Assembly (NCBI GenBank): GCA_018238625.1
Contig: JABCSY010000001.1
Location: 45,279-109,278, forward strand
From: Promethearchaeota archaeon
GTDB taxonomy: Archaea > Asgardarchaeota > Lokiarchaeia > Sigyniarchaeales > SOKP01
Direction of reading: 5' to 3'
Length of the DNA: 64,000 bases
The notes beneath the pieces are model-generated. The model saw nothing but the letters and a program-made list of their open reading frames with translations. It had not been told where the DNA came from and made no database searches. Shown here one piece after another: positions 4,975 through 45,568 of the stretch (positions are counted from its first letter, which is position 1; each line of letters starts with the position of its first letter). A program made the position numbers and the translations under genes.

Positions 4975-5928
4975 ATAAAAATACTCCTATTTGGCCCTGG
5001 TGGTGCGGGTAAAACGTCATTAATGCGGACTACTTGTTTAGGTTATAATTTCATGAAAGTACTTAATCTGAAACCTACAAAAGGAGTCTCGAGGGAAAAC
5101 TTTATATTTAGGGGAATAATGGAACTTTCCATCTGGGATTTAGGCGGTCAGGAACTTTATATGGAAAGATATTTCTCGGAAAAACAGCGAGAGCTTGTGT
5201 TTTCTGAAGTAACAGCTGCAGTTTTCATGGTTGATTCGGCAGCAGAAGAACCAAAACTAAAAGATACCTTTGGCAAATTCTTGAAATACCTTTTCGAATT
5301 TAGTCCTGAAGTAGGAAAAGTATACGTCTTATTAAATAAAACTGATCTTCAAGAATCAAAAGAAGATGACATTTATGAACTATTAATTAAAGATCTTACA
5401 GACGATTTAAAAAGCAAAATTGCTTTTACACCTGTATCAGTAAAAGAGGGAAGTGCTCAACATCGATTGATCGAAATACTCGATTATAAAATTCAAGAGA
5501 ACACATTAGCTTTACAAAGACTTGGGAAAATACGCCATTTGTTAGACCAATTGAAGATCAATACGCTTTCAGAATTTCTTTTGTTTAACCAACCAGATGG
5601 TTTATTAATAGCATCCACAATAGGAAAATTTGAAAGTCCAAATCTCCAATTCCTCCGTTTTGAAATAGGAAGCCTTGATTCAAATATATATCAAATCTAT
5701 ACAAAGATTATGGAACTTTCAGATTCTTCGATTTCTCCTTTAGAATTATCGACAGTTATATATGAGAGCGAACATAACTACATCTTAGTGAAGGAAGTTA
5801 GCAATGGATCGGTACTGATGGTTGTTACTAAAGAGAAATCCATTAGTATTTTTAATACTGTGATGGACGACTTAAATGGCGAAAATTTCCAAAATTTGAA
5901 AAAATTCCTTAGTAGGGACGATTTTTAA
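4975..5928 (+). CDS. Rag/Gtr-like small GTPase with C-terminal roadblock-like domain (probable ATA start at 4975; track ORF starts at 5023)
   Basis: The in-frame P-loop KILLFGPGGAGKTS lies upstream of the first ATG. G2 PT, G3 WDLGGQ and G4 NKTD are present. C-terminal FNQPDGLLIAST pattern is roadblock-like. Confidence 0.85.
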   Translation: MKILLFGPGGAGKTSLMRTTCLGYNFMKVLNLKPTKGVSRENFIFRGIMELSIWDLGGQELYMERYFSEKQRELVFSEVTAAVFMVDSAAEEPKLKDTFGKFLKYLFEFSPEVGKVYVLLNKTDLQESKEDDIYELLIKDLTDDLKSKIAFTPVSVKEGSAQHRLIEILDYKIQENTLALQRLGKIRHLLDQLKINTLSEFLLFNQPDGLLIASTIGKFESPNLQFLRFEIGSLDSNIYQIYTKIMELSDSSISPLELSTVIYESEHNYILVKEVSNGSVLMVVTKEKSISIFNTVMDDLNGENFQNLKKFLSRDDF

Positions 5929-6949
5929 CTGATTCTAAATCAATTTTATTAGAAAATAATGTTCTATTAGAATGTTCTTCAATTATAGAAAACAAGTAAT
6001 TATTTGTATTTTTGATTACAGGCGTTATAAACAATAATTCTTCTTCTGGAAGGCATTTTTCAACTTTTTCGTTTAATACCTCTTTTTCAAAAAACTCTTT
6101 AATGTAAGTAATTCGGATGATGAGATCGTTGAATTCCTTTTTGCTGTTATTCTTTACTAAAACTTCTATTTCCTGAAAATTGTTAATAATATTTATGTTT
6201 GTTATTTTAAATTGATCTTTTATTCCTAATTTTTGTTGAACAACTCTATCGTAATCAAATAATCGAATTTTAGAAAACGATTCATTTTGAGCGTCCATAA
6301 CAATGTGGTCAATATCAATTCCTTTAAATGTTAAATAAGAAATTGCTTTTTGCAATTTGAAAGAAGTCGCATCAGTTTGTTTAATTACCGATGAAAAATG
6401 TTCCTCACAAGTAAGGTTAATTATTGCTTTTATTTCTTCTTTTATTTGGTCTCCTTTTTTTATTACATTGATTAATTTTTCCGTTTTAATAACTTCCAGT
6501 TTCGCAATTTCTGACTCTATTACCTGATAAAGCGTATTTTCAAATTGATCGATTATTTTTTTCGTTAATAAATTTATTAATTCGCCCCCAAAAACATCTA
6601 AATCTGTTGGCAACACAAGTATCAACACAACAATTTCACCCCTTTTTTGGAAAGACCCTGCTCTTCTTTTGACCCTTTTAGATTCAACAATAAATTTCTT
6701 CGCAAAATACATATTATTACTGTATTCTAAATCAATTCGGTTAATTGTAGTTTTATCTTTAAGCTCTAAAAACCAAATTGGATGGTATCTTATAAGATGC
6801 ATTTTTCCTGAGTCATCATCTAGCGCGTTTTCTGGACAAATAAGAAGTGGGACATGGCCTATAGTCTCATCAAAATAAAACAAAAGAGTCTCACATAATT
6901 CCTTAAATGGACAATCTGTATTGGCGTTATTTAAGCGATTTTCTTCCAA
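5909..6949 (-). CDS. Longin/uDENN-like domain protein with a C-terminal beta-rich (Ig-like?) domain
   Basis: N-terminal LFYFDETIGHVPLLICP resembles the F-D/E-x3-G-x6-P start of uDENN/NPRL2-type longins. KRG precedes a hydrophobic strand. Confidence 0.55.
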   Translation of the reverse strand: MEENRLNNANTDCPFKELCETLLFYFDETIGHVPLLICPENALDDDSGKMHLIRYHPIWFLELKDKTTINRIDLEYSNNMYFAKKFIVESKRVKRRAGSFQKRGEIVVLILVLPTDLDVFGGELINLLTKKIIDQFENTLYQVIESEIAKLEVIKTEKLINVIKKGDQIKEEIKAIINLTCEEHFSSVIKQTDATSFKLQKAISYLTFKGIDIDHIVMDAQNESFSKIRLFDYDRVVQQKLGIKDQFKITNINIINNFQEIEVLVKNNSKKEFNDLIIRITYIKEFFEKEVLNEKVEKCLPEEELLFITPVIKNTNNYLFSIIEEHSNRTLFSNKIDLESVKNRPY

Positions 6950-7007: not shown

Positions 7008-8312
7008 TTAATGAGAAGCGCACGATATGCAAGGATCAAATGCTCTTATCATTATTTGAGTTTTTTCTTTAACAGACTCGATATCTTCTTTTTCATATAG
7101 CTTCTTAGCATATTCAGTGATCATTTTGTTAATAATAGGCAAATTTATTTCGGTTGCAATGAAAAGCTTTACTTGATCAACGGTTTTAGCTTTATTTAAG
7201 TGATAATGATGCATTAGTATACCTCTTGGTGCTTCGATAACCCCTATCCCATTTGATTTTTTTATTGAGTTTAGTTGTTTAAGTTGTGTTTTACTTTTTA
7301 GTGAAGTAGTATTTAATATTTCAATACTTTTTTGAATTTCGCAATAGCTTTCAATTAATTGTAAAAAGTTTAAAAATAATAAATTGCTTTTCCATTTTTT
7401 TCCAAAATTACCCATATATTCGGATATTTTATCTATCCCATAATTTTGAGTTAACCTATAGCGCGCTATTGGTCCTGTTAAAATCTTATTTTTCGAATTC
7501 GACTTAAAAGTAATCCCATAAAGATTAGAGTCTTTATCAAAATATTTTGAATAATTTTTCGCTTGAAAATCGTCGTAAGTTGTTTCACTTCGTTTAATTC
7601 TAAGGTCTCCTTCATACCTATCAAACCCCATATTATTCTTTAAGCCGAAATATATAGGGTTAGAAAGATTAAATTCTGTAGGAGGTTCAAAAGCAGAAAA
7701 TAAATCTATAAAATTTTCAATTAAGGTTTCTATGTAGTAAATTCCCTTTTTTAGATATTTCTCCGTAAAAATTAAACTTTTTCGAGTAGGATTGAATATT
7801 AATCCTCCCGGAATCGGAGTAATTGGATGTAGTGCCCTTCCTCCTATTAATTTGTTTATTTCTGAACCAATTTTTATTAAATTAAATACATTTGTCGCTA
7901 AATGAGGATTGTAATTAATTAAATTATAAGAATCGTTATCAATAGTTTTAATTTTAAATATTTTTAATAAATCTGGAAAGGACTGTAAAAAATAATGCAT
8001 AATGTGCGATTTTATTAATTCTCCAGACAATAATACCTTTCTAAGCAAAATTGATTGGTGTGATGGTTCTATTCCGTATATACTTTCTATTGCTTTGCAA
8101 CTTGCAATTGTTTGAGATGCGGAGCATTGTCCACAAATTCTAGATGCAATTTTTGGAATATCTAATAGCTTTTTACCTACTAAAATATTTTCAAATCCTC
8201 TAAATACTGAAAAACTCAATTCAGTTTGATAAATTTCATCGTTTTTTAAATAAATGTTTAAGTTTCCACAACCTTCAACCCTTGTGCATGCTTCTACAAC
8301 TTTATCCATCAA
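7008..8312 (-). CDS. mvhA: [NiFe]-hydrogenase large subunit, group 3 (MvhA-like), divergent, no C-terminal extension
   Basis: TRVEG, L1 RICGQC, EAPRG, L2 RAFDPCISCASH followed directly by the stop. Confidence 0.88.
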   Translation of the reverse strand: MMDKVVEACTRVEGCGNLNIYLKNDEIYQTELSFSVFRGFENILVGKKLLDIPKIASRICGQCSASQTIASCKAIESIYGIEPSHQSILLRKVLLSGELIKSHIMHYFLQSFPDLLKIFKIKTIDNDSYNLINYNPHLATNVFNLIKIGSEINKLIGGRALHPITPIPGGLIFNPTRKSLIFTEKYLKKGIYYIETLIENFIDLFSAFEPPTEFNLSNPIYFGLKNNMGFDRYEGDLRIKRSETTYDDFQAKNYSKYFDKDSNLYGITFKSNSKNKILTGPIARYRLTQNYGIDKISEYMGNFGKKWKSNLLFLNFLQLIESYCEIQKSIEILNTTSLKSKTQLKQLNSIKKSNGIGVIEAPRGILMHHYHLNKAKTVDQVKLFIATEINLPIINKMITEYAKKLYEKEDIESVKEKTQIMIRAFDPCISCASH

Positions 8313-9073
8313 TCCTTCCCTCCTACATGTGATTTTGAGAACCTATAATAAATCCCTTTATATTTTCTTAGATCTTTAGAAAGATTAAAAAGGCTTAAGA
8401 AATTGATTAAATTCGAGGTAAACCCCTTTGAAACAGGACCTAAACATCCTTCACAGGGTAATCCTTGATTTATGCAGAGATGGTCGCAGCCATCCCGAGT
8501 AACAGGGCCTAAACATAAAATCCCATCGTTCAAAAAACACGATAAATTTTCTTCCGGAAAACGAATTTCATCGTTTCTTGGAACTATCTTTTCTATTGTT
8601 AATGGTAAATCTAATTTTGCTTGGTTGTTTAAAGGACAAGTAGAACACATATTTTTTGAGCTTAGCTCGAATTTTTTGTTCTCAACTAGCCTTAATAAAC
8701 AATTTCCTAAAAGTATAGATGGAGGCGGGCATCCAGGTATAATACCATCAACTTCTACAAACTTTGAAATAGGATACGCTTCTTTTTTATTTGAGAGACT
8801 AAGAATTCCCCCAAACGCTGAGCATGTACCTAATGCATATAGTTTTTTTGCATTTTTTCGTATTTCTTGAAGATACTCGATTTGATTCTTTTCTGATACG
8901 CACCCCTCTACTAGCGCTATATCGCATTCTTTAATCTCTAAATTATCAGATATAAATGGAAAATATTCGATTTTCGTTCTTTCAAGAAATTGTGGAAATA
9001 TATCTAGCGATATTAATGCTGATATACATCCAGTACAAGAAGTTAAAGATGTAATTAAAAATTTAAGCCTCAC
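8309..9073 (-). CDS. mvhG: [NiFe]-hydrogenase small subunit (MvhG-like)
   Basis: SCTGC, VEG, GTCSAFGG, PGCPP, CSTC, CLGPVT..GC...C.....PCEGC. Overlaps both neighbours, suggesting translational coupling. Confidence 0.9.
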   Translation of the reverse strand: MRLKFLITSLTSCTGCISALISLDIFPQFLERTKIEYFPFISDNLEIKECDIALVEGCVSEKNQIEYLQEIRKNAKKLYALGTCSAFGGILSLSNKKEAYPISKFVEVDGIIPGCPPPSILLGNCLLRLVENKKFELSSKNMCSTCPLNNQAKLDLPLTIEKIVPRNDEIRFPEENLSCFLNDGILCLGPVTRDGCDHLCINQGLPCEGCLGPVSKGFTSNLINFLSLFNLSKDLRKYKGIYYRFSKSHVGGKD

Positions 9074-11609
9074 TTTTAATCTCCTCCTTTAGTAAATTAT
9101 AGAATTTATTAGAGATTTCAGCAAATAGCTGTCCTTCTACTCCGTTTAAACTCATCACTATTATCCGTCTGCTTAACTTTGGTCCTAGAATCTTTTTTAA
9201 AAGCCCAACTCTTTTTTTTAATTTTTCAATCCCGTCAATATATCTACAAGAATCCTTTCTGCAACCGATAATCATAACTCCGTCAAACCCCATTTCAAGA
9301 GATTTAACAATGAATTCAGTATCAATACGGCCAGTACAAGGAACAGAGATTATAAAAACATTAGGTTGATATAACAATTTCTTTAATCCTGCATTGTCAG
9401 CGGCAGCGTAACCGCACGATTGGCAACAAAAAGCGATGATTTTTGGTTTTTTATTGAATTTTGAGAAAATTTCGATCGTTTTTAAAATCTTTTCTGATGT
9501 ATTTATATTCATTTCGATGGCATTAGTAGGACAAACACTAACACACATACCACAAGCTTTACATTTAAACTTATCAACAGTAATTTTTTCGGAGTTTATG
9601 CTTATTGCATTGTAAGGGCAAGAAATAACGCAGAGGTTACACAATCCACATTTGTCTTCATTAATCTCTATTCCAGTATATTCTGTTATTAAATAATCGT
9701 TTGAAAGAAGTGATATTACTTTTAACGCTATGTTATTGGTGGTTGCTATAGTCGAGTGATAATTTAATGGGCCAAATATTGTTCCAACACCATAAATACC
9801 AGAAGCTAAAGTTTCTTCACTCATAAAACCATAATCATTTAAAGTGAAGTCCATAATCTTTCTTAGAGATTTCAAATCCTTATTTGGAATTAATTTAAGG
9901 TTTAAAACAATCAAATCACTTTGAAACTCAATAGAATCCGCAATTACATAGTTAATATTCTCTTTTGTCTCAATTAATACTTTATTAGCGTAAAGAAATC
10001 TCGGATGAGTAGATTTTAGTATTATCTCGTCTTTTTCTTTTAGTTTACTTAAATCGTAAAAAACATTAACTTCACAATCAGGGCTCTTTACTTTAATAAC
10101 ATCTATATACTTTAGGGTTAAAATATCCGAATATTCACATAGATAGTTTGAAGATCCAACTTCTTGAATAATTGATATTGTTTTTACTGGTTTCCCATCA
10201 GATAATTTTACTATCTTTCCATCAGTTAGGCCATCTGAACATAAAATTCGTTCAAATTCTGCTGAAGTTATAATATTATTTTGTGGATTATAATTATATT
10301 CTTTTAAATTTGAAGAAAGATCTGAACCAATAGCTATAACTTTAGCGCCTACTTTAATTCTTAATTCCTTAGGCTTTTCTCTTAAATTAATTGCTTTATT
10401 TGCACAAGCACGTTCACATATTCCACATTCAAGGCAGCTTTTAATATCTTCATCGTCAATAACAGGAACATAAGGATAACAATATTGAAAAGGAAAGTGA
10501 ATTATTTTTCTATGCGTTAAACCAAATTCATATAGATTAACTTTCTCTCGAGCACACACATCCACACATTGCTTACAACCTGTACATTTTGTCTCATCAA
10601 CATAGCGAGGATTTTTAATTAAACTTATAGTAAAATTGCCAACTTCTCCCGATACGCTAATTATTTCCGTATTTGTCAAGATCTCAATATTATTTTCTTT
10701 CACAATTTCCCCAATTAATTCGGAGATTAAACAAGTAGAGCAATCTCCCATATTTGAAATCTTTTGCCATCTTGCTACTTTTCCTCCTAATGTAGGAGAC
10801 TTTTCAATTAGGTAACACTTAATACCTGCCCTTGATAAGTTTAACGCTATATTCATACCAGCAATCCCTCCTCCCAGAATTGCGCAACTTTTTTCAACTT
10901 CAACTCTTTTTATCTTAATTGGTTTTTGAAGACTTACTCGATTAACTGAGGCTTCAATAAGTAATTGCGCTTTTTTCAAAGTTAAAAGGCTATCAATGTG
11001 CTTTTTACTTGAATAATGTACCCAACAACATTGTTCTCTTATATTTGCAATCTCAATATTAGCATTATCAATTATATTATGAAAAAGACGTTCAAATACA
11101 TGTTGATGTGTTTTAGGAGAACAGGCAGCGATAACAATTTTATTTACGAAGTTATCAGTAATCCAATTATTAATTTTATCTTGGTTTTTTTCTTGACATA
11201 AATTATCAAGAATTTTAACTGAGACTACATTATTTATTTTACTTGCATAGTTTTCTAAGGAATTAATGTTAAGGACATTTGAAACTTCTGTATTACAATT
11301 ACAGATGATAACACCTATTCTGTTTATTTCGCTTCCTTTTGATTTTAAATAGTCTATTTCCTCTCCAGATAAAATTCTTTTATTTAATCCTAATATCCTT
11401 AAAACTCTTTTACCGTCATCTGTTAAATAATATGATTTTTTGTCTTTACTTACTAAATTATTAAGCTTTTTCAAATGAAAATTTAATTGCCCTGTTTGTT
11501 CTATACCTAACTTCATCATTAATTCAGTATATGGAATAAAACCTTCTTCTTCGAGAATGTATAAGAGTTTTCTTCTGATTGGATGAGCTAAAATTGAATA
11601 AATATCCAT
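9063..11609 (-). CDS. Fusion of winged-HTH (ArsR-like), HdrA-like FAD/Fe-S protein and MvhD-like 2Fe-2S domain
   Basis: aa1-80 LAHPIRRKLL...LNFHLKKL...YYLTDDG. HdrA motifs CNC, AACSP, NIREQCCWVH, GGGIAG and ferredoxin CxxCxxCxxxC pairs. MvhD motifs FCCQSCGYAAAD, PCTGRID, GC...CRY..G. Confidence 0.92.
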   Translation of the reverse strand: MDIYSILAHPIRRKLLYILEEEGFIPYTELMMKLGIEQTGQLNFHLKKLNNLVSKDKKSYYLTDDGKRVLRILGLNKRILSGEEIDYLKSKGSEINRIGVIICNCNTEVSNVLNINSLENYASKINNVVSVKILDNLCQEKNQDKINNWITDNFVNKIVIAACSPKTHQHVFERLFHNIIDNANIEIANIREQCCWVHYSSKKHIDSLLTLKKAQLLIEASVNRVSLQKPIKIKRVEVEKSCAILGGGIAGMNIALNLSRAGIKCYLIEKSPTLGGKVARWQKISNMGDCSTCLISELIGEIVKENNIEILTNTEIISVSGEVGNFTISLIKNPRYVDETKCTGCKQCVDVCAREKVNLYEFGLTHRKIIHFPFQYCYPYVPVIDDEDIKSCLECGICERACANKAINLREKPKELRIKVGAKVIAIGSDLSSNLKEYNYNPQNNIITSAEFERILCSDGLTDGKIVKLSDGKPVKTISIIQEVGSSNYLCEYSDILTLKYIDVIKVKSPDCEVNVFYDLSKLKEKDEIILKSTHPRFLYANKVLIETKENINYVIADSIEFQSDLIVLNLKLIPNKDLKSLRKIMDFTLNDYGFMSEETLASGIYGVGTIFGPLNYHSTIATTNNIALKVISLLSNDYLITEYTGIEINEDKCGLCNLCVISCPYNAISINSEKITVDKFKCKACGMCVSVCPTNAIEMNINTSEKILKTIEIFSKFNKKPKIIAFCCQSCGYAAADNAGLKKLLYQPNVFIISVPCTGRIDTEFIVKSLEMGFDGVMIIGCRKDSCRYIDGIEKLKKRVGLLKKILGPKLSRRIIVMSLNGVEGQLFAEISNKFYNLLKEEIKSEA

Positions 11610-11665
11610 TTCTGAGCTTTCCTATTGATTTTTTATTTTAAATTTATTTTGTTAAAAAAAAAAAT

Positions 11666-11706
11666 TTGACAAATTATTTTTTCTTCATGACAATATATGT
11701 TGTAAA
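11666..11706. promoter_or_regulatory. Putative operator sites upstream of the HTH-HdrA-MvhD gene
   Basis: Half-site TTGACAA at 11666 and ATGACAA-TATATG-TTGTAAA at 11687-11706 match the TTGAYAA-N6-TTRTCAA consensus. Confidence 0.55.
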
Positions 11707-11805
11707 AATATATAAATGTGTTAGAAAATGATCATATGATCCGCGAATTTCATTAATAAAAATGACGATTTTCGATTAACTAAAAAATTTGTTTAGAAAA
11801 TAATT

Positions 11806-11849
11806 TTGATAATATTTCTTATCAATATGTTAAAAAATTTTCTTGTCAA
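11806..11849. promoter_or_regulatory. Putative operator: palindrome plus a second half-site 24 bp downstream
   Basis: TTGATAA-TATTTC-TTATCAA at 11806-11825 (perfect arms); TTGTCAA at 11843-11849. Confidence 0.65.
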
Positions 11850-11919
11850 ATTCTTTTTATTTTAGGCTTATGACAATTTAATTAGGTAAGTATTTTTTTA
11901 AAAAGTTGAAATAAAAGAG

Positions 11920-12549
11920 GTGTATTATTATATGGAAGTATTGGAATTGAAACCAGTAAAAAATAAAAAAATAATAGTGTATATGTCCTCAAAAGAAAAT
12001 GGTAGGTATTTTCAAAATCAAGATACATCAAGATTAACTGATTTTCTCAAAAAGAAAGATGTTAACTTTGTAACCGTAGATTTTCAAGTAGATATGAAAG
12101 TGTTTAAGAAAACACCTTTTGCACAAACATTAGATAAACTTGGAATACCATATATTCAAGTAGATATTCCAGATTATGCAATGGGATATCTTTACGAAGA
12201 AATTGTCGAAAAACAAGAACTTCAAAATGAATTATTTGAAGAATACGACAATATGAGCGATAAAGAATCTTTCAAAGGGCAAAGTCTAAAAAATTGGATT
12301 GACATGCTAAGCGAAGAAATTCAAGAAAGAGAGATTTTTTTAAGCTTGAAACTAAGACCACAGTGGATCGTAAAAAAAATGCTAGATTTTGCAAATCGTT
12401 TTGAAAATGAAGTGGTTTCTTTTGTACATTTTGTTCAAGAGGATATTTGCGAGGATATTTGCCCTCAAGTCGTTGCAAATTTAAGAGATTTGGGAGTAAA
12501 AGTAATTTCCTATACTAAAAAACACACAATTCAAAATATTATATTTTAA
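11920..12549 (+). CDS. Unknown protein, paralog of 12573 and 16853 (likely true start ATG 11932); possibly a degenerate TraB/Tiki-like fold
   Basis: GAGGTG SD before ATG 11932. N-terminal EVLELKP and the central helical hairpin are shared with the neighbouring paralogs. Confidence 0.8.
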   Translation: MYYYMEVLELKPVKNKKIIVYMSSKENGRYFQNQDTSRLTDFLKKKDVNFVTVDFQVDMKVFKKTPFAQTLDKLGIPYIQVDIPDYAMGYLYEEIVEKQELQNELFEEYDNMSDKESFKGQSLKNWIDMLSEEIQEREIFLSLKLRPQWIVKKMLDFANRFENEVVSFVHFVQEDICEDICPQVVANLRDLGVKVISYTKKHTIQNIIF

Positions 12550-12572: not shown

Positions 12573-13304
12573 ATGCCAGAAGTATTAGAATTAAAGCCAT
12601 TAAAAGATAAGCATTTAAAGCTTATCATGGTAGAAAGTGAGTTTCCAATAGATTGGTGGTTCGAAGTTCCTAAAGAAAAAAAGGAAGATTTGCTATGGTC
12701 TTTACATCTTATTAGCAAAGAATATCTTCAGCTCATCGATGGTTTAATAGACAAATATTCACCTGATTTTGCTTTAGAAGAAAAACCTAATTTTTGGGAT
12801 GACCCGTTAAACCCTAACGATCCTCTAAAAACATTACTCAAAAAGAAAGGAATTCGATTTAAACATGCTGATATCTCTGAAAATGCGGAATTTTATCTTT
12901 CTGCTGCTTTGGATGAACACAGAAGTATGCTACAAACACTTGAAAAACGAATCAAAGAGATAATTACAGAAAATGGTGGTGTTCCTTCCGAAGATGAACT
13001 TTTCCAACAATTAGTTTTATGGAAGGACTATCTCAAAAATGATTATGACTCACAAGAAGATGAAATACGATATAAAGTTAGAGAAGCTTGGATGATGATG
13101 AATACTCTAAACCTTGCAAAGGAGATTAAAGGGAAAAAATTAAAGGGGTTATTTATTTGCGATTTAAGGCACTTTGAAGGCTTAGATAAGTTAGCAAACG
13201 ATTTAGGCATCGATACAGAGCAGATTAAAATTAAAAGAACTATTAAAACCGCAGAAATCGAAAAAGAGTATGAAGAAGAGGTAGAAGTTGAAATATCTAA
13301 ATAA
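12573..13304 (+). CDS. Unknown protein with TraB/GumN/Tiki-superfamily-like motifs
   Basis: SPDFALEE, REAWM and LFICDLRH resemble the PD.v..E, R..xM and vG..H motifs; AGGAG SD. The fold call is tentative. Confidence 0.6.
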   Translation: MPEVLELKPLKDKHLKLIMVESEFPIDWWFEVPKEKKEDLLWSLHLISKEYLQLIDGLIDKYSPDFALEEKPNFWDDPLNPNDPLKTLLKKKGIRFKHADISENAEFYLSAALDEHRSMLQTLEKRIKEIITENGGVPSEDELFQQLVLWKDYLKNDYDSQEDEIRYKVREAWMMMNTLNLAKEIKGKKLKGLFICDLRHFEGLDKLANDLGIDTEQIKIKRTIKTAEIEKEYEEEVEVEISK

Positions 13305-13358: not shown

Positions 13359-14372
13359 ATGAGAAAAATTACTCAAAATGATGAAATTGGAAATAAAATT
13401 GAAAGTATTCTCGGTAAAAAATCAATAATAGAATTGACGCCAATTAAAATAAAGAAAAAGGATAGTTCAGATAAGATTTGCTATTTTTTTGACACGGATG
13501 ATAACGCTTCTCCGTTTGACATAAACATGGCTTACGACGCTGGTTTTGATATCGTTGTGCCAATAAGTAAAATGACGGCGGATCAAGTTCCTAAACTTGT
13601 CCAGGATGCTATATTTTCACGTAAACCTAAAGCACGGACAACATTTTTTATTGGGGGATCTAATGTAAAGGAGGGGGAAAAAATCGCTAGGAAAGTCATT
13701 GAATCCTTAGTACCTCCATTTGAATGTCCCGTAATAATAGATCCAAGGGGTTCTCATACTACTGCTTCTGCTGTTGTAGCTAAGACTTTATACGACGCTA
13801 AAAATATCCATAAAATTAGTGATTTAAAAGGAGAAAAAGTCGTAATCTATGGGGCAGGCCCAGTTGCCAGAATTGCTGCTATATTAGCAGCAAAAGAAGG
13901 GTTGAATGTATTTTTAGTTGAAACTTGGGATAAATCGAACGAAGAATTTATAAAAAATCTTGCTAAAGAAGTAACCGAAGAAGCTGGCGAGGGTGCAACC
14001 GAGATTAAAGGGGTGTTTGCGCCTGAAAAAGAACAAAGATATGATGTTGCTAAAGATGCGCTTATTATCTGGTCTTTAGCTGCTGCTGGTGTTGAAATTT
14101 TATCAAGCAATCTAATGGAAAGATTAGAAGGTAAGAAAATTGTAGTAGATATCAATTTAGTTCCCCCTTATGGAATTGAAGGAATAAGACCAAAACACGA
14201 TAATAAAGAAATATATTCAGGAATTTTTGGAATCGGAGCATTAGCATTAGGTCGATTAAAAGCAAATTCGGAGGGAGAAATATTGAAAGAAGCAACAAAA
14301 ACTAAAGGTACAAAGGTATTTGATTATAGCTATGCGTTCGAAGTTGCTAAAAAATTGTTATCTAAGATTTAA
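13359..14372 (+). CDS. NAD(P)-dependent methylene-H4MPT (H4F) dehydrogenase, MtdA/MtdB family
   Basis: SPFDINMAYDAG, VQDAIFSR, FIGG, DPRGSHTTASAVVA, GAGPV, DINLVPPYGIEG, GIGALALG.LK. Confidence 0.9.
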   Translation: MRKITQNDEIGNKIESILGKKSIIELTPIKIKKKDSSDKICYFFDTDDNASPFDINMAYDAGFDIVVPISKMTADQVPKLVQDAIFSRKPKARTTFFIGGSNVKEGEKIARKVIESLVPPFECPVIIDPRGSHTTASAVVAKTLYDAKNIHKISDLKGEKVVIYGAGPVARIAAILAAKEGLNVFLVETWDKSNEEFIKNLAKEVTEEAGEGATEIKGVFAPEKEQRYDVAKDALIIWSLAAAGVEILSSNLMERLEGKKIVVDINLVPPYGIEGIRPKHDNKEIYSGIFGIGALALGRLKANSEGEILKEATKTKGTKVFDYSYAFEVAKKLLSKI

Positions 14373-16708: not shown

Positions 16709-16740
16709 AAAAAATTAATTAAACTTGTCAAGGATATTTT

Positions 16741-16784
16741 TTGAAAAATAAAATTATCAATTTATCAAAAATTTTTCTTATCAA
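16741..16784. promoter_or_regulatory. Second copy of the putative operator architecture
   Basis: TTGAAAA-ATAAAA-TTATCAA at 16741-16760 and TTATCAA at 16778-16784, with the same 24-bp spacing; another TTGTCAA at 16725. Confidence 0.65.
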
Positions 16785-44680: not shown

Positions 44681-45568
44681 TTATTGTTGATAAAGATGTA
44701 ATATTTTTCTCGCTTCTTCAGGCGTAGCAACTTCTCTCCCTGCCATTTTCGTAACTTTAGCTGCCCATTCTACTTGTTCCCAGGAACCTTTAGCTAATGC
44801 CCCATCGACTGTGCGGATATTATCTTCTAAACCAACTCTTATGTGTCCTCCCATTGCTGCGGCGCACATTCCTGCTTGAAATTGATTTTTTGCTACCCCA
44901 CACACGCTCCAAGTATCGTCAGGTGGTTTTAAATTAAGTAAATGAGCTAAATTTTCGAAAGAAAAAGGGACGCCTCCCAAAACTCCAAAAACAAATTGGT
45001 AGTGAAGAGGTGGATCCAGAATCACCTTCGCTTGTTTCCTAAGATGTAGAATGTTATACATGCCTCCAAAATCATATACTTCGATTTCTGGTTTGACTTG
45101 ATTTTTTTTCATAGCTTTAGCGAATTTTTGAATCGTATTAAATGAATTCGCGAATATAGCTTTAGCACCAAGTCCAACGGCTCCTGTTTTATGGTCTCCA
45201 ACAGCAAAATTCATTGAATTGGAATTTAAGGAAGCAATTGGAGGTTTAAATGTTATAATAGGGGCTATTCTTTGTTTATCAGTTACTATTAAACTGATAG
45301 CAGAACTTAAGTTGATTAGAAGATCTGGAGCCTTTTCTTTGATGTTATCTAATACGGCTTTAATTTTTTCTAATTCGTGCGTTGGATTACCTTTTTCGGG
45401 GTCTCTTGCGTGGATATGCACAATTGCTGCTCCTGCATCGTAACATTTTTTTGCTTCATCCCCAAATTCTTCGGGTGTATATGGAACAGCGGGATTCTGA
45501 GATTTTATCGTCGCAGCACCGGTTAGAGCTGCTGTTATAACTAATTTTTTTGATAAGTCTTCTGACAT
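44681..45568 (-). CDS. Beta-keto acid cleavage enzyme (BKACE/DUF849, Kce-like)
   Basis: ITAALTGA, AGAAIVHIHARD, KPEIE, GHIRVGLEDN. Confidence 0.93.
   Translation of the reverse strand: MSEDLSKKLVITAALTGAATIKSQNPAVPYTPEEFGDEAKKCYDAGAAIVHIHARDPEKGNPTHELEKIKAVLDNIKEKAPDLLINLSSAISLIVTDKQRIAPIITFKPPIASLNSNSMNFAVGDHKTGAVGLGAKAIFANSFNTIQKFAKAMKKNQVKPEIEVYDFGGMYNILHLRKQAKVILDPPLHYQFVFGVLGGVPFSFENLAHLLNLKPPDDTWSVCGVAKNQFQAGMCAAAMGGHIRVGLEDNIRTVDGALAKGSWEQVEWAAKVTKMAGREVATPEEARKILHLYQQ

Follow-up and report, generated by a model that had tools for sequence, protein, structure and literature searches.

The 64,000-nucleotide stretch of DNA analysed here (the window; positions 45,279–109,278 of the forward strand of contig JABCSY010000001.1) belongs to the 4.29-Mb genome, labelled G000 below, of Promethearchaeota archaeon GCA_018238625.1 (GTDB lineage Archaea; Asgardarchaeota; Lokiarchaeia; Sigyniarchaeales; SOKP01). 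It carries a three-gene cassette that encodes a fusion of an N-terminal winged helix, the flavoprotein HdrA and the [2Fe-2S] adaptor MvhD, followed by an MvhG-like small subunit and a large subunit of a [NiFe] hydrogenase (Table 1; coordinates are window positions unless a locus label, L, or a contig label, C, is given). The fusion gene overlaps the small-subunit gene by 11 nucleotides (nt), and the latter overlaps the large-subunit gene by 4 nt when the TTG start is counted. The true start of the large subunit is probably the ATG one codon after this TTG, which gives a protein of 433 residues, because database homologues are 433 residues long. Reading the fusion gene from the winged helix into HdrA reveals neither a stop codon nor an in-frame ATG, GTG or TTG, and the fusion is therefore real in the assembly. 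The order of domains and the gene overlaps agree with a preliminary description of the locus and are borne out by the open reading frames (ORFs) and by Pfam, NCBIfam and PDB matches. In public annotation, the fusion proteins are called just ‘hydrogenase iron-sulfur subunit’ or ‘FAD-dependent oxidoreductase’ (FAD, flavin adenine dinucleotide). The fusion is widespread and largely undescribed. A literature search found no description of an Asgard HdrA with a fused winged helix and no matches for DUF7347, the Pfam family of the winged helix, although supplementary tables (asCOG lists, hydrogenase classifications) might list it. Published work on Asgard archaea handles these genes as MvhADG-HdrABC or as HdrA fusions, and the winged helix is not mentioned in the accessible text of these papers (PMC7015854, PMC11237513, PMC11227280).

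Profile and fold together support the assignment of the N-terminal domain to the ArsR-type winged helices. In Pfam, residues 2–72 match the DUF7347 winged helix (PF24038) with 41.1 bits against a cut-off of 27.6, and a profile built from seven diverse N-termini finds as its top PDB match 1y0u, a putative archaeal ArsR repressor (expect value, E, 1.2e-7), followed by PagR, ArsR and SmtB. The AlphaFold2 model (predicted local distance difference test, pLDDT, 85.6) consists of helices 10–22 and 27–34, a recognition helix (39–52), a β-hairpin wing (53–62) and a C-terminal helix (64–81), which is the a1-a2-a3-aR-b1-b2-a5 topology of ArsR/SmtB-type factors. Its best Foldseek matches are the NolR-DNA complex, CadC, YodB, Rv0081, HxlR, ArsR, HlyU and BigR, all of them dimeric regulators, with template-modelling (TM) scores of 0.58–0.73. 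The domain thus models as the winged helix-turn-helix that had been proposed for it. Among 120 full-length orthologues, the winged helix has a column conservation of 0.855, the FAD domain 0.868 and the other parts 0.72–0.83; these orthologues were chosen by N-terminal similarity, which biases the comparison slightly toward the winged helix. The recognition-helix motif TGQLNFHL is almost invariant in the same set. A two-copy dimer prediction of residues 1–95 scores 0.29 (mark 0.42) and weighs neither for nor against a dimer.

The fusion occurs across the Asgard archaea. A query with residues 1–140 returns 164 proteins at E<=1e-3 that are 63–96% identical over that stretch, from records labelled Loki-, Hermod-, Thor-, Odin-, Hod- and Helarchaeota. 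Among the 120 matches listed, all have PF24038 and 117 also have PF02662, the MvhD family, the other three being fragments. When 1.8 billion representative sequences are searched, 6 of the best 150 matches cover the N-terminus and the others begin at residue 82 or later. Residues 1–95 are matched in 144 of 301 genomes of the phylum, and in at least 68 of the 301 the winged helix heads a frame of at least 671 residues; these frames fall into six or more families (f1, f3, f21, f18, f14 and f9). Weaker matches in this survey are stand-alone proteins of 250–330 residues, and none of the seven genomes of the sister family f2 has a winged-helix match. The order of fusion, small subunit and large subunit is the same in all 16 related public loci and in all eight distant loci; the comparison of the 16 covered 11 neighbour proteins of the window. 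A chimera or misassembly, for which the preliminary description had asked a check of architecture and synteny across Asgard genomes, is rejected by the presence of the fusion in the 164 proteins and of the cassette in all 16 related loci. Genomes that have no winged-helix match also have no cassette hydrogenase and retain only another type, 23–26% identical to it. Thus, the cassette is accessory, and its genes are gained or lost together. One of the public records, DATKTW010000111.1 (L020), is titled as a Nanopelagicaceae bacterium, yet it is fully syntenic with Promethearchaeota loci, with 88–94% protein identity, and is probably a mis-binned contig.

Other enzymes in these genomes carry similar segments. 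A second DUF7347-headed enzyme of G000 (672 residues; contig C131, L009:4309-6327, plus strand) has an anaerobic ribonucleotide-reductase (NRDD) region at residues 447–659. In the related locus L028, FrhB-like proteins flank the cassette (L028:12812-16629 and L028:4182-7498); one has a weak TrmB-type match (E 1.6e-4), and another combines FlpD, a weak match to a DeoR-type helix-turn-helix, Fer4 and FrhB. The same locus contains a split HdrA-like pair (160 and 473 residues), and the same split is found in genome G099 (101 and 472 residues).

Table 1. Features of the cassette, of the shared intergenic region and of the neighbouring genes.
Feature	Position	Strand	Basis or remark
Winged helix-HdrA-MvhD fusion gene, 848 residues	9063–11609	−	ORF, domain searches, conserved orthologues
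ArsR/HxlR-type winged helix, residues 1–81	11367–11609	−	PF24038, 1y0u, AlphaFold2 model, Foldseek
HdrA core, residues 97–713	9471–11321	−	PDB 8rvu/5odc HdrA, E about 1e-106
MvhD/FlpD [2Fe-2S] domain, residues 721–841	9087–9449	−	PF02662, PDB MvhD chains
[NiFe]-hydrogenase small subunit, MvhG-like, 254 residues	8309–9073	−	Pfam, NCBIfam, PDB 5odc_E
[NiFe]-hydrogenase large subunit, 434 residues from TTG	7008–8312	−	Pfam, NCBIfam, PDB 7t2r_D/5odc_F
L1 motif RICGQCSASQ, residues 58–67	8112–8141	−	Aligned to RICGICPVSH of 7t2r
L2 motif DPCISCASH, stop codon directly after	7011–7037	−	ORF translation
unk346, starts 58 nt downstream of the large subunit	5909–6949	−	No family match
Intergenic region, 310 bp, GC content 0.18, shared by the cassette and the divergent unk209-unk243-mtdA-like operon	11610–11919
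Two half-sites, TTGACAA (11666–11672) and CATGACAA (11686–11693)	11666–11693		Downstream of the cassette TATA box
Probable cassette TATA box TTTATATA	11709–11716	−	Conserved in 16 aligned upstream regions; putative function
GATCATATGATC palindrome	11730–11741		Near the probable cassette TATA box
Inverted repeat TTGATAA-N6-TTATCAA, candidate operator	11806–11825		Pattern scan of genome and loci
Extra half-site CTTGTCAAA	11842–11850		Adjoins a possible unk209 TATA box at 11854–11864 (putative promoter)
unk209, Asgard-only, paralogue of unk243	11920–12549	+	No family
unk243, Asgard-only	12573–13304	+	Homologous to the N-terminal half of 497–602-residue MtdA-like fusion proteins (f9, f14)
MtdA-like NAD(P)-dependent methylene-tetrahydromethanopterin dehydrogenase	13359–14372	+	Mpt_N E 5.5e-26; PDB MtdA

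The HdrA core of the fusion protein consists of an N-terminal iron-sulfur (Fe-S) domain, an FAD/thioredoxin-reductase-like domain, and inserted and C-terminal ferredoxin domains. PDB HdrA chains align to residues 93–713 (E 4e-106) and MvhD chains to residues 721–841 (E 1e-20). In Pfam, an FAD/NAD Rossmann fold begins at residue 243, 4Fe-4S motifs lie at 341–405 and 647–700, and FlpD/MvhD (PF02662) spans 724–841 (E 2.3e-33; 115.3 bits, cut-off 22.3). The GxGxxG glycines (G246, G248 and G251) and the cysteines of the clusters vary little or not at all in a comparison of 66 fused and unfused sequences. The best NCBIfam model, HdrA2, spans residues 97–842, but the NCBIfam scores of the fusion (555.7, 402.4 and 349.6 bits) lie below the curated cut-offs of HdrA2 (1100) and HdrA (1300–1400), so that the protein is a divergent relative and not an equivalog. 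Of the nine MvhD/FlpD copies that the genome contains, the one in the fusion diverges most. Two of these nine matches have two in-frame TGA codons each (C119:2526-2888 and C32:13836-14204), which fits the selenoprotein MvhD/FrhD reported for Asgard archaea in the accessible part of PMC11227280.

Both hydrogenase subunits resemble cytosolic group-3 enzymes. The small subunit is Oxidored_q6/MvhG-like in Pfam, its best PDB match is MvhG (5odc_E, E 2.9e-32), and its cysteines, judged by eye, are enough for three Fe-S clusters. The large subunit matches NiFeSe_Hases (Pfam) and retains both cysteine pairs, in L1 (RICGQC) and L2 (DPCISC). Its PDB matches, considered here as the best 60 of 69, are led by 7t2r_D, the large subunit of the bifurcating HydABCSL (E 4.9e-49), and by MvhA (5odc_F, E 1.8e-44). 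The NCBIfam scores, 174.7 bits for ShyA of group 3b (cut-off 700) and 153.7 bits for VhuA (cut-off 800), leave groups 3b and 3c unseparated. By sequence comparison, the closest families and structures of the large subunit thus all appear to belong to group 3 and not to group 2. Given the similarity to HdrA and MvhD, the kept FAD and Fe-S ligands, the L1 and L2 cysteines and the MvhG-like small subunit, the cassette very likely encodes a catalytically active enzyme. It would be a hydrogenase wired through the fused MvhD [2Fe-2S] cluster to a complete HdrA flavoprotein, i.e. a module for flavin-based electron bifurcation, or confurcation, of the Mvh/HdrA type.

The partner of such a module is most likely not HdrBC. 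As the preliminary description noted, hdrBC genes are absent from the window, and no HdrB/D-type CCG domain is found on the whole 109-kb contig (C109). All 43 CCG-domain matches of the genome, in about 25 genes, lie on other contigs. That description took the absence of hdrBC as a sign that the complex had been repurposed, an argument that loses its force with these genes elsewhere in the genome and with all HdrA cofactor ligands retained. Upstream of the cassette runs a divergent operon of unk209, unk243 and an MtdA-like gene (Table 1). The MtdA-like protein matches PDB MtdA (1lu9, 6tge and 6tlk) with E 2e-28 across residues 37–333, its whole length. Neither unk209 nor unk243 matches a Pfam or NCBIfam family, the ESM atlas returns only Asgard hypothetical clusters for unk243, and the AlphaFold2 model of unk243 (pLDDT 81.5) has no fold match in the PDB (best E 0.047, TM <=0.34). 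In families f1 and f21, the MtdA-like gene adjoins the cassette in divergent orientation. The MtdA-like enzyme of f9 and f14 carries a fused unk243-like domain, and its gene comes immediately after that of the large subunit, in the same orientation.

Paralogous sets are found beside other flavin/Fe-S electron-input modules. On contig C162 of G000 (L047:2065-8254), two operons diverge from an intergenic region full of half-sites of the kind described below; the first encodes an unk209-like protein and a 556-residue unk243-like/Mpt_N protein, and the second a 294-residue NfnA/PyrK-like and a 914-residue Fer4-FrhB-NfnB/GltD-like protein. In G099, the unk209/MtdA-like operon adjoins the split HdrA-like and FrhB-like genes. 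The recurrent linkage of the cassette with MtdA-like genes is the strongest clue to function and argues for a metabolic partner that replaces HdrBC. The most likely partner would be the MtdA-like dehydrogenase together with unk209 and unk243, which would couple H2 to the one-carbon (C1) pathway of tetrahydromethanopterin (H4MPT), or to NADP, and to ferredoxin; both the chemistry and the direction of electron flow are suppositions. Regardless of regulation, the MtdA-like enzyme and the two Asgard-only proteins suggest an undescribed coupling of H2 to the H4MPT branch of the Wood-Ljungdahl pathway.

The large subunit has two peculiarities that recall H2 sensors. Gln67 replaces the L1 histidine of other [NiFe] hydrogenases, and the chain ends at the L2 histidine, without a C-terminal extension; each trait is found in all 16 related loci and in 119 of 120 homologues. 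The L1 histidine and extension that are canonical for group 3c are thus both missing here, and the two traits present are those of group 2b, in which, in work by Buhrke and colleagues from 2002, the glutamine of regulatory hydrogenases is said to sit at the L1 position. The glutamine is called characteristic of regulatory hydrogenases in the accessible text of PMC5665086, and the lack of the extension is, according to an excerpt of PMC7294309, common to H2 sensors and to groups 4c and 4e. Since the genome encodes a HycI-type endopeptidase, the lack of the extension is not imposed by protease loss. On these grounds, the cassette could be a dedicated sensor, a one-component transcription factor in which a low-turnover hydrogenase without a net metabolic role reports H2 partial pressure through MvhD, the Fe-S clusters and FAD to the winged helix. 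Such a role would suit a cassette that has no HdrBC in cis and that is accessory to another hydrogenase, which genomes without the cassette retain and which in G000 sits beside HdrC- and HdrB-like genes.

The distribution of the two traits speaks against a dedicated sensor. The deeper fusion families f21, f14 and f9 have the L1 histidine and a short C-terminal extension; f3 has the glutamine and an extension, and f18 keeps the histidine (KICGFCSAAH) and has an altered L2 motif followed by extra residues. The glutamine and the missing extension are therefore younger than the fusion and arose in one branch. Moreover, the same text of PMC5665086 holds that the glutamine is apparently not involved in H2 sensing. 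The full bifurcation apparatus, the inserted ferredoxin domain included, is conserved in the fusion, the closest solved relatives of the large subunit are group-3 enzymes, and the same-strand arrangement of the MtdA-like gene in f9 and f14 resembles an enzyme complex. With a metabolic acceptor other than HdrBC indicated by this linkage, a pure sensor, as first proposed, is improbable and ranks last among the three main readings considered here.

The other [NiFe] hydrogenase of the genome lies on contig C95 (L010:6441-10772, minus strand) and is followed by the HdrC-like and HdrB-like genes. Its small and large subunits both have 438 residues. The large subunit has the canonical L1 motif RICGICPIPH and stops at a TAA before any L2 motif, and an L2-bearing piece was not found. 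Selenocysteine read-through was considered and rejected, the stop codon being TAA.

The region between the cassette and the divergent operon is rich in short repeats. It holds four TTGAYAA/TTRTCAA heptamers, a number reached in none of 2000 shuffles (mean 0.43) and in 3 of 2464 low-GC windows of the genome, for a motif that was chosen after looking at the region. Two of the heptamers form an inverted repeat, TTGAYAA-N6-TTRTCAA, whose sole match in the genome is the one in this region. In 46 fetched loci (463 kb), the same 7-6-7 pattern has 13 matches, all upstream of the fusion gene, including L028 with its different flanks, L036 (f21) and L040 (f3), with constant half-sites and variable spacers. 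Of 15 representative loci, 9 have the relaxed 5-6-5 form, GAYAA-N6-TTRTC, upstream of the fusion gene (f1, L028, f3, f21, f14 and f9), against a background of 30 occurrences in the genome and 8 of 2913 low-GC windows. The two half-sites downstream of the probable cassette TATA box are also kept in L028 and L030, whose upstream genes differ. The palindrome is a candidate operator that is real enough for testing.

The ArsR-type profile, the confident fold, the matches to dimeric regulators, the conservation and spread of the domain and the rare upstream palindrome argue that the winged helix is a regulator, and we give its binding to DNA in vivo close to an even chance. The best single reading of the locus, an analogy with trigger enzymes, is that an active enzyme and a winged helix that binds DNA are combined in one complex, which we adopt tentatively, at somewhat under an even chance. 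Early in the evolution of the Asgard archaea, HdrA would have gained an ArsR-type winged helix at its N-terminus. The HdrA dimer would set two winged helices on the GAYAA-N6-TTRTC repeats of its own and of the divergent promoter, and H2 would alter the occupancy of the DNA through the redox state of the FAD/Fe-S chain.

Several observations weigh against this combination of enzyme and regulator. The relaxed palindrome is missing upstream of the fusion gene in 6 of the 15 loci (both f18 loci, L027, L029, L030 and L034), and its pattern was set from the window's own family and then tested in the others. In f14 and f9 it also precedes the MtdA-like gene (L033:6119, L034:6140 and L037:4957) and may therefore belong to the regulator of that gene. 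A palindrome of the same type lies on C162, at the second G000 locus, between the unk209-like/MtdA-like and the NfnA/FrhB-NfnB-like operons. G099, which is 99% complete and has no fusion, carries half-site clusters before its unk209/MtdA-like operon and one 5-6-5 palindrome between the split HdrA-like and the FrhB-like genes; a different regulator may therefore be what binds these motifs. Stand-alone DUF7347 paralogues are present in all these genomes and could be the real binders of the palindrome. Thus, the promoter region, put forward in the preliminary description as the target of the fusion protein, does hold a rare palindrome in several families, but operator-like motifs are not confined to genomes with the fusion. 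On the enzymatic side, the NCBIfam scores far under the curated HdrA2, VhuA and VhuG cut-offs make activity and substrate extrapolations, and, for bifurcation, the methenyl/methylene-H4MPT couple does not readily suggest itself as a high-potential acceptor. A motif of the C162 type was not found upstream of the NfnA-like gene in any of the nine genomes examined, whose upstream context differs whether or not the cassette is present, which makes this comparison uninformative.

Much of this evidence would suit a purely metabolic module, working with the MtdA-like system or with CCG-domain proteins, in which the winged helix has a structural role or serves protein contacts, by dimerisation or docking, and a separate factor, e.g. 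a stand-alone DUF7347 protein, binds the palindromes. The retained cofactor motifs and the conserved MtdA-like linkage are what such a module would display. Segment 76–96, which follows the wing, is as conserved (0.83 in the 120 orthologues) as the domain itself, which suggests fixed packing and not a flexible tether. The winged-helix-like segments of the NrdD-like and FrhB-like proteins show that such parts occur in other enzymes. A further point against DNA binding comes from class II benzoyl-CoA reductase, a bifurcating complex of the HdrA type, whose MvhD-like adaptor BamF contains a winged helix-turn-helix and uses it as a protein interface, according to the accessible part of the preprint (bioRxiv 10.64898/2026.04.10.717634). 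The motif of BamF, however, lies in the MvhD-like subunit and contacts BamI, whereas in the fusion it is the HdrA N-terminus that carries the motif, which there is similar to ArsR-type repressors. The nearest relatives of the fused winged helix by sequence and fold are all DNA-binding repressors, its recognition motif is almost invariant, and the exact 7-6-7 palindrome occurs once in the genome and, in the 463 kb of loci, just upstream of the fusion gene. We regard a purely metabolic module as possible but rather doubtful, though only slightly less likely than the combined enzyme and regulator.

The winged helix might also bind nucleic acid non-specifically or anchor the complex on the nucleoid or on a second protein with a winged helix; it would then regulate no specific genes, and the promoter palindrome would be unrelated to it. 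That several redox and nucleotide enzymes of these genomes have received winged helices hints at a general habit of the lineage. A palindrome that is specific to, and conserved in, the upstream region of the cassette, and a conserved ArsR-type recognition helix, make this very improbable.

A stronger form of the combined enzyme and regulator is conceivable but, on what the sequences offer, unlikely: a kinase-free signalling device, specific to Asgard archaea, that leads from H2 and redox state to DNA within one polypeptide and switches the MtdA-like, unk209 and unk243 genes of the H4MPT C1 pathway and the cassette itself according to H2 partial pressure. Electrons would pass from the hydrogenase by way of MvhD and the Fe-S clusters to the flavin of HdrA, and the state of reduction of this chain would set the affinity of the two winged helices of the HdrA dimer for GAYAA-N6-TTRTC operators. 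In such a device, the window's family would have converged on the glutamine and the missing extension of bacterial regulatory hydrogenases. No histidine kinase was seen among the neighbours of the cassette.

The cassette resembles several known systems, each in part. With MvhAGD-HdrABC of methanogens it shares the [NiFe] large and small subunits, the [2Fe-2S] adaptor MvhD and an HdrA that carries FAD and several [4Fe-4S] clusters, and with HdrA2 of Methanosarcina the C-terminal fusion of MvhD. It differs from them in the N-terminal ArsR-type winged helix, in the absence of HdrB/C in cis, in its linked MtdA-like partner, in the L1 glutamine and missing extension of the large subunit in the window's family and in scores far under the curated cut-offs. 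The group 2b sensors HoxBC/HupUV, which act with a histidine kinase, have the glutamine and lack the extension, as does the window's hydrogenase, whose small subunit also appears to keep all three Fe-S clusters. Unlike them, the window's hydrogenase belongs to group 3 by sequence, its signal would reach a fused DNA-binding domain through MvhD and HdrA and not a kinase, and the shared traits are confined to one or two fusion families.

As regards regulation, the closest analogues are the trigger enzymes PutA, BirA, NadR and RbkR, in which an enzyme likewise carries an N-terminal DNA-binding domain; the fusion has a candidate palindromic operator at its own operon. PutA is a flavoenzyme, and its binding to DNA depends on the redox state of its FAD. 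The enzyme of the Asgard fusion forms a single subunit within a multi-subunit hydrogenase/bifurcation complex, and it would respond to H2 or redox state and not to a small-molecule substrate. RbkR is described in the accessible text of PMC5397151 as an archaeal fusion of a winged helix-turn-helix and an enzyme with predicted autoregulation. SurR and the redox-sensing ArsR/HxlR/MarR regulators YodB, HlyU, BigR and RexT have the same class of winged-helix fold as the N-terminal domain of the fusion, but they are small, stand-alone, cysteine-sensing proteins, whereas the winged helix of the fusion has no such switch of its own and is joined to a flavin/Fe-S enzyme. Among them, SurR of Thermococcales is a sulfur-responsive regulator of energy-metabolism genes according to an excerpt of PMC12162507.

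Current models of how Asgard archaea live and of a syntrophic origin of eukaryotes give H2 exchange a central place. To our knowledge, no H2-responsive regulator is known in Asgard archaea. The cassette combines a DNA-binding fold with the core of a bifurcating hydrogenase complex, is widespread in the phylum and accessory to a canonical hydrogenase, and supplies a concrete candidate operator and a defined protein fragment (residues 1–96).

Downstream of the large subunit, unk346 matches no Pfam or NCBIfam family and is conserved only within the window's family, and its membership in the cassette unit is doubtful. In metatranscriptomes (two runs from two studies, Logan contigs), contigs 90–99% alike to the window cover parts of the fusion gene, unk346 with the large subunit, and the divergent operon; a single contig covers 5900–7938. 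These contigs indicate presence in RNA libraries and carry no level, strand or transcript ends, and the parts that they leave uncovered are uninformative. Convergent with unk346, and overlapping it by 20 nt, lies a gene for a Gtr1/RagA-like small GTPase (5023–5928, plus strand; E 7e-18), a eukaryote-like signature protein. Further along the window, four TTGAYAA/TTRTCAA heptamers lie within 60 bp (16725–16784), one of the densest clusters in the genome, downstream of a CDC48 gene and upstream of an unknown ORF of 83–86 residues (16853/16862–17113).

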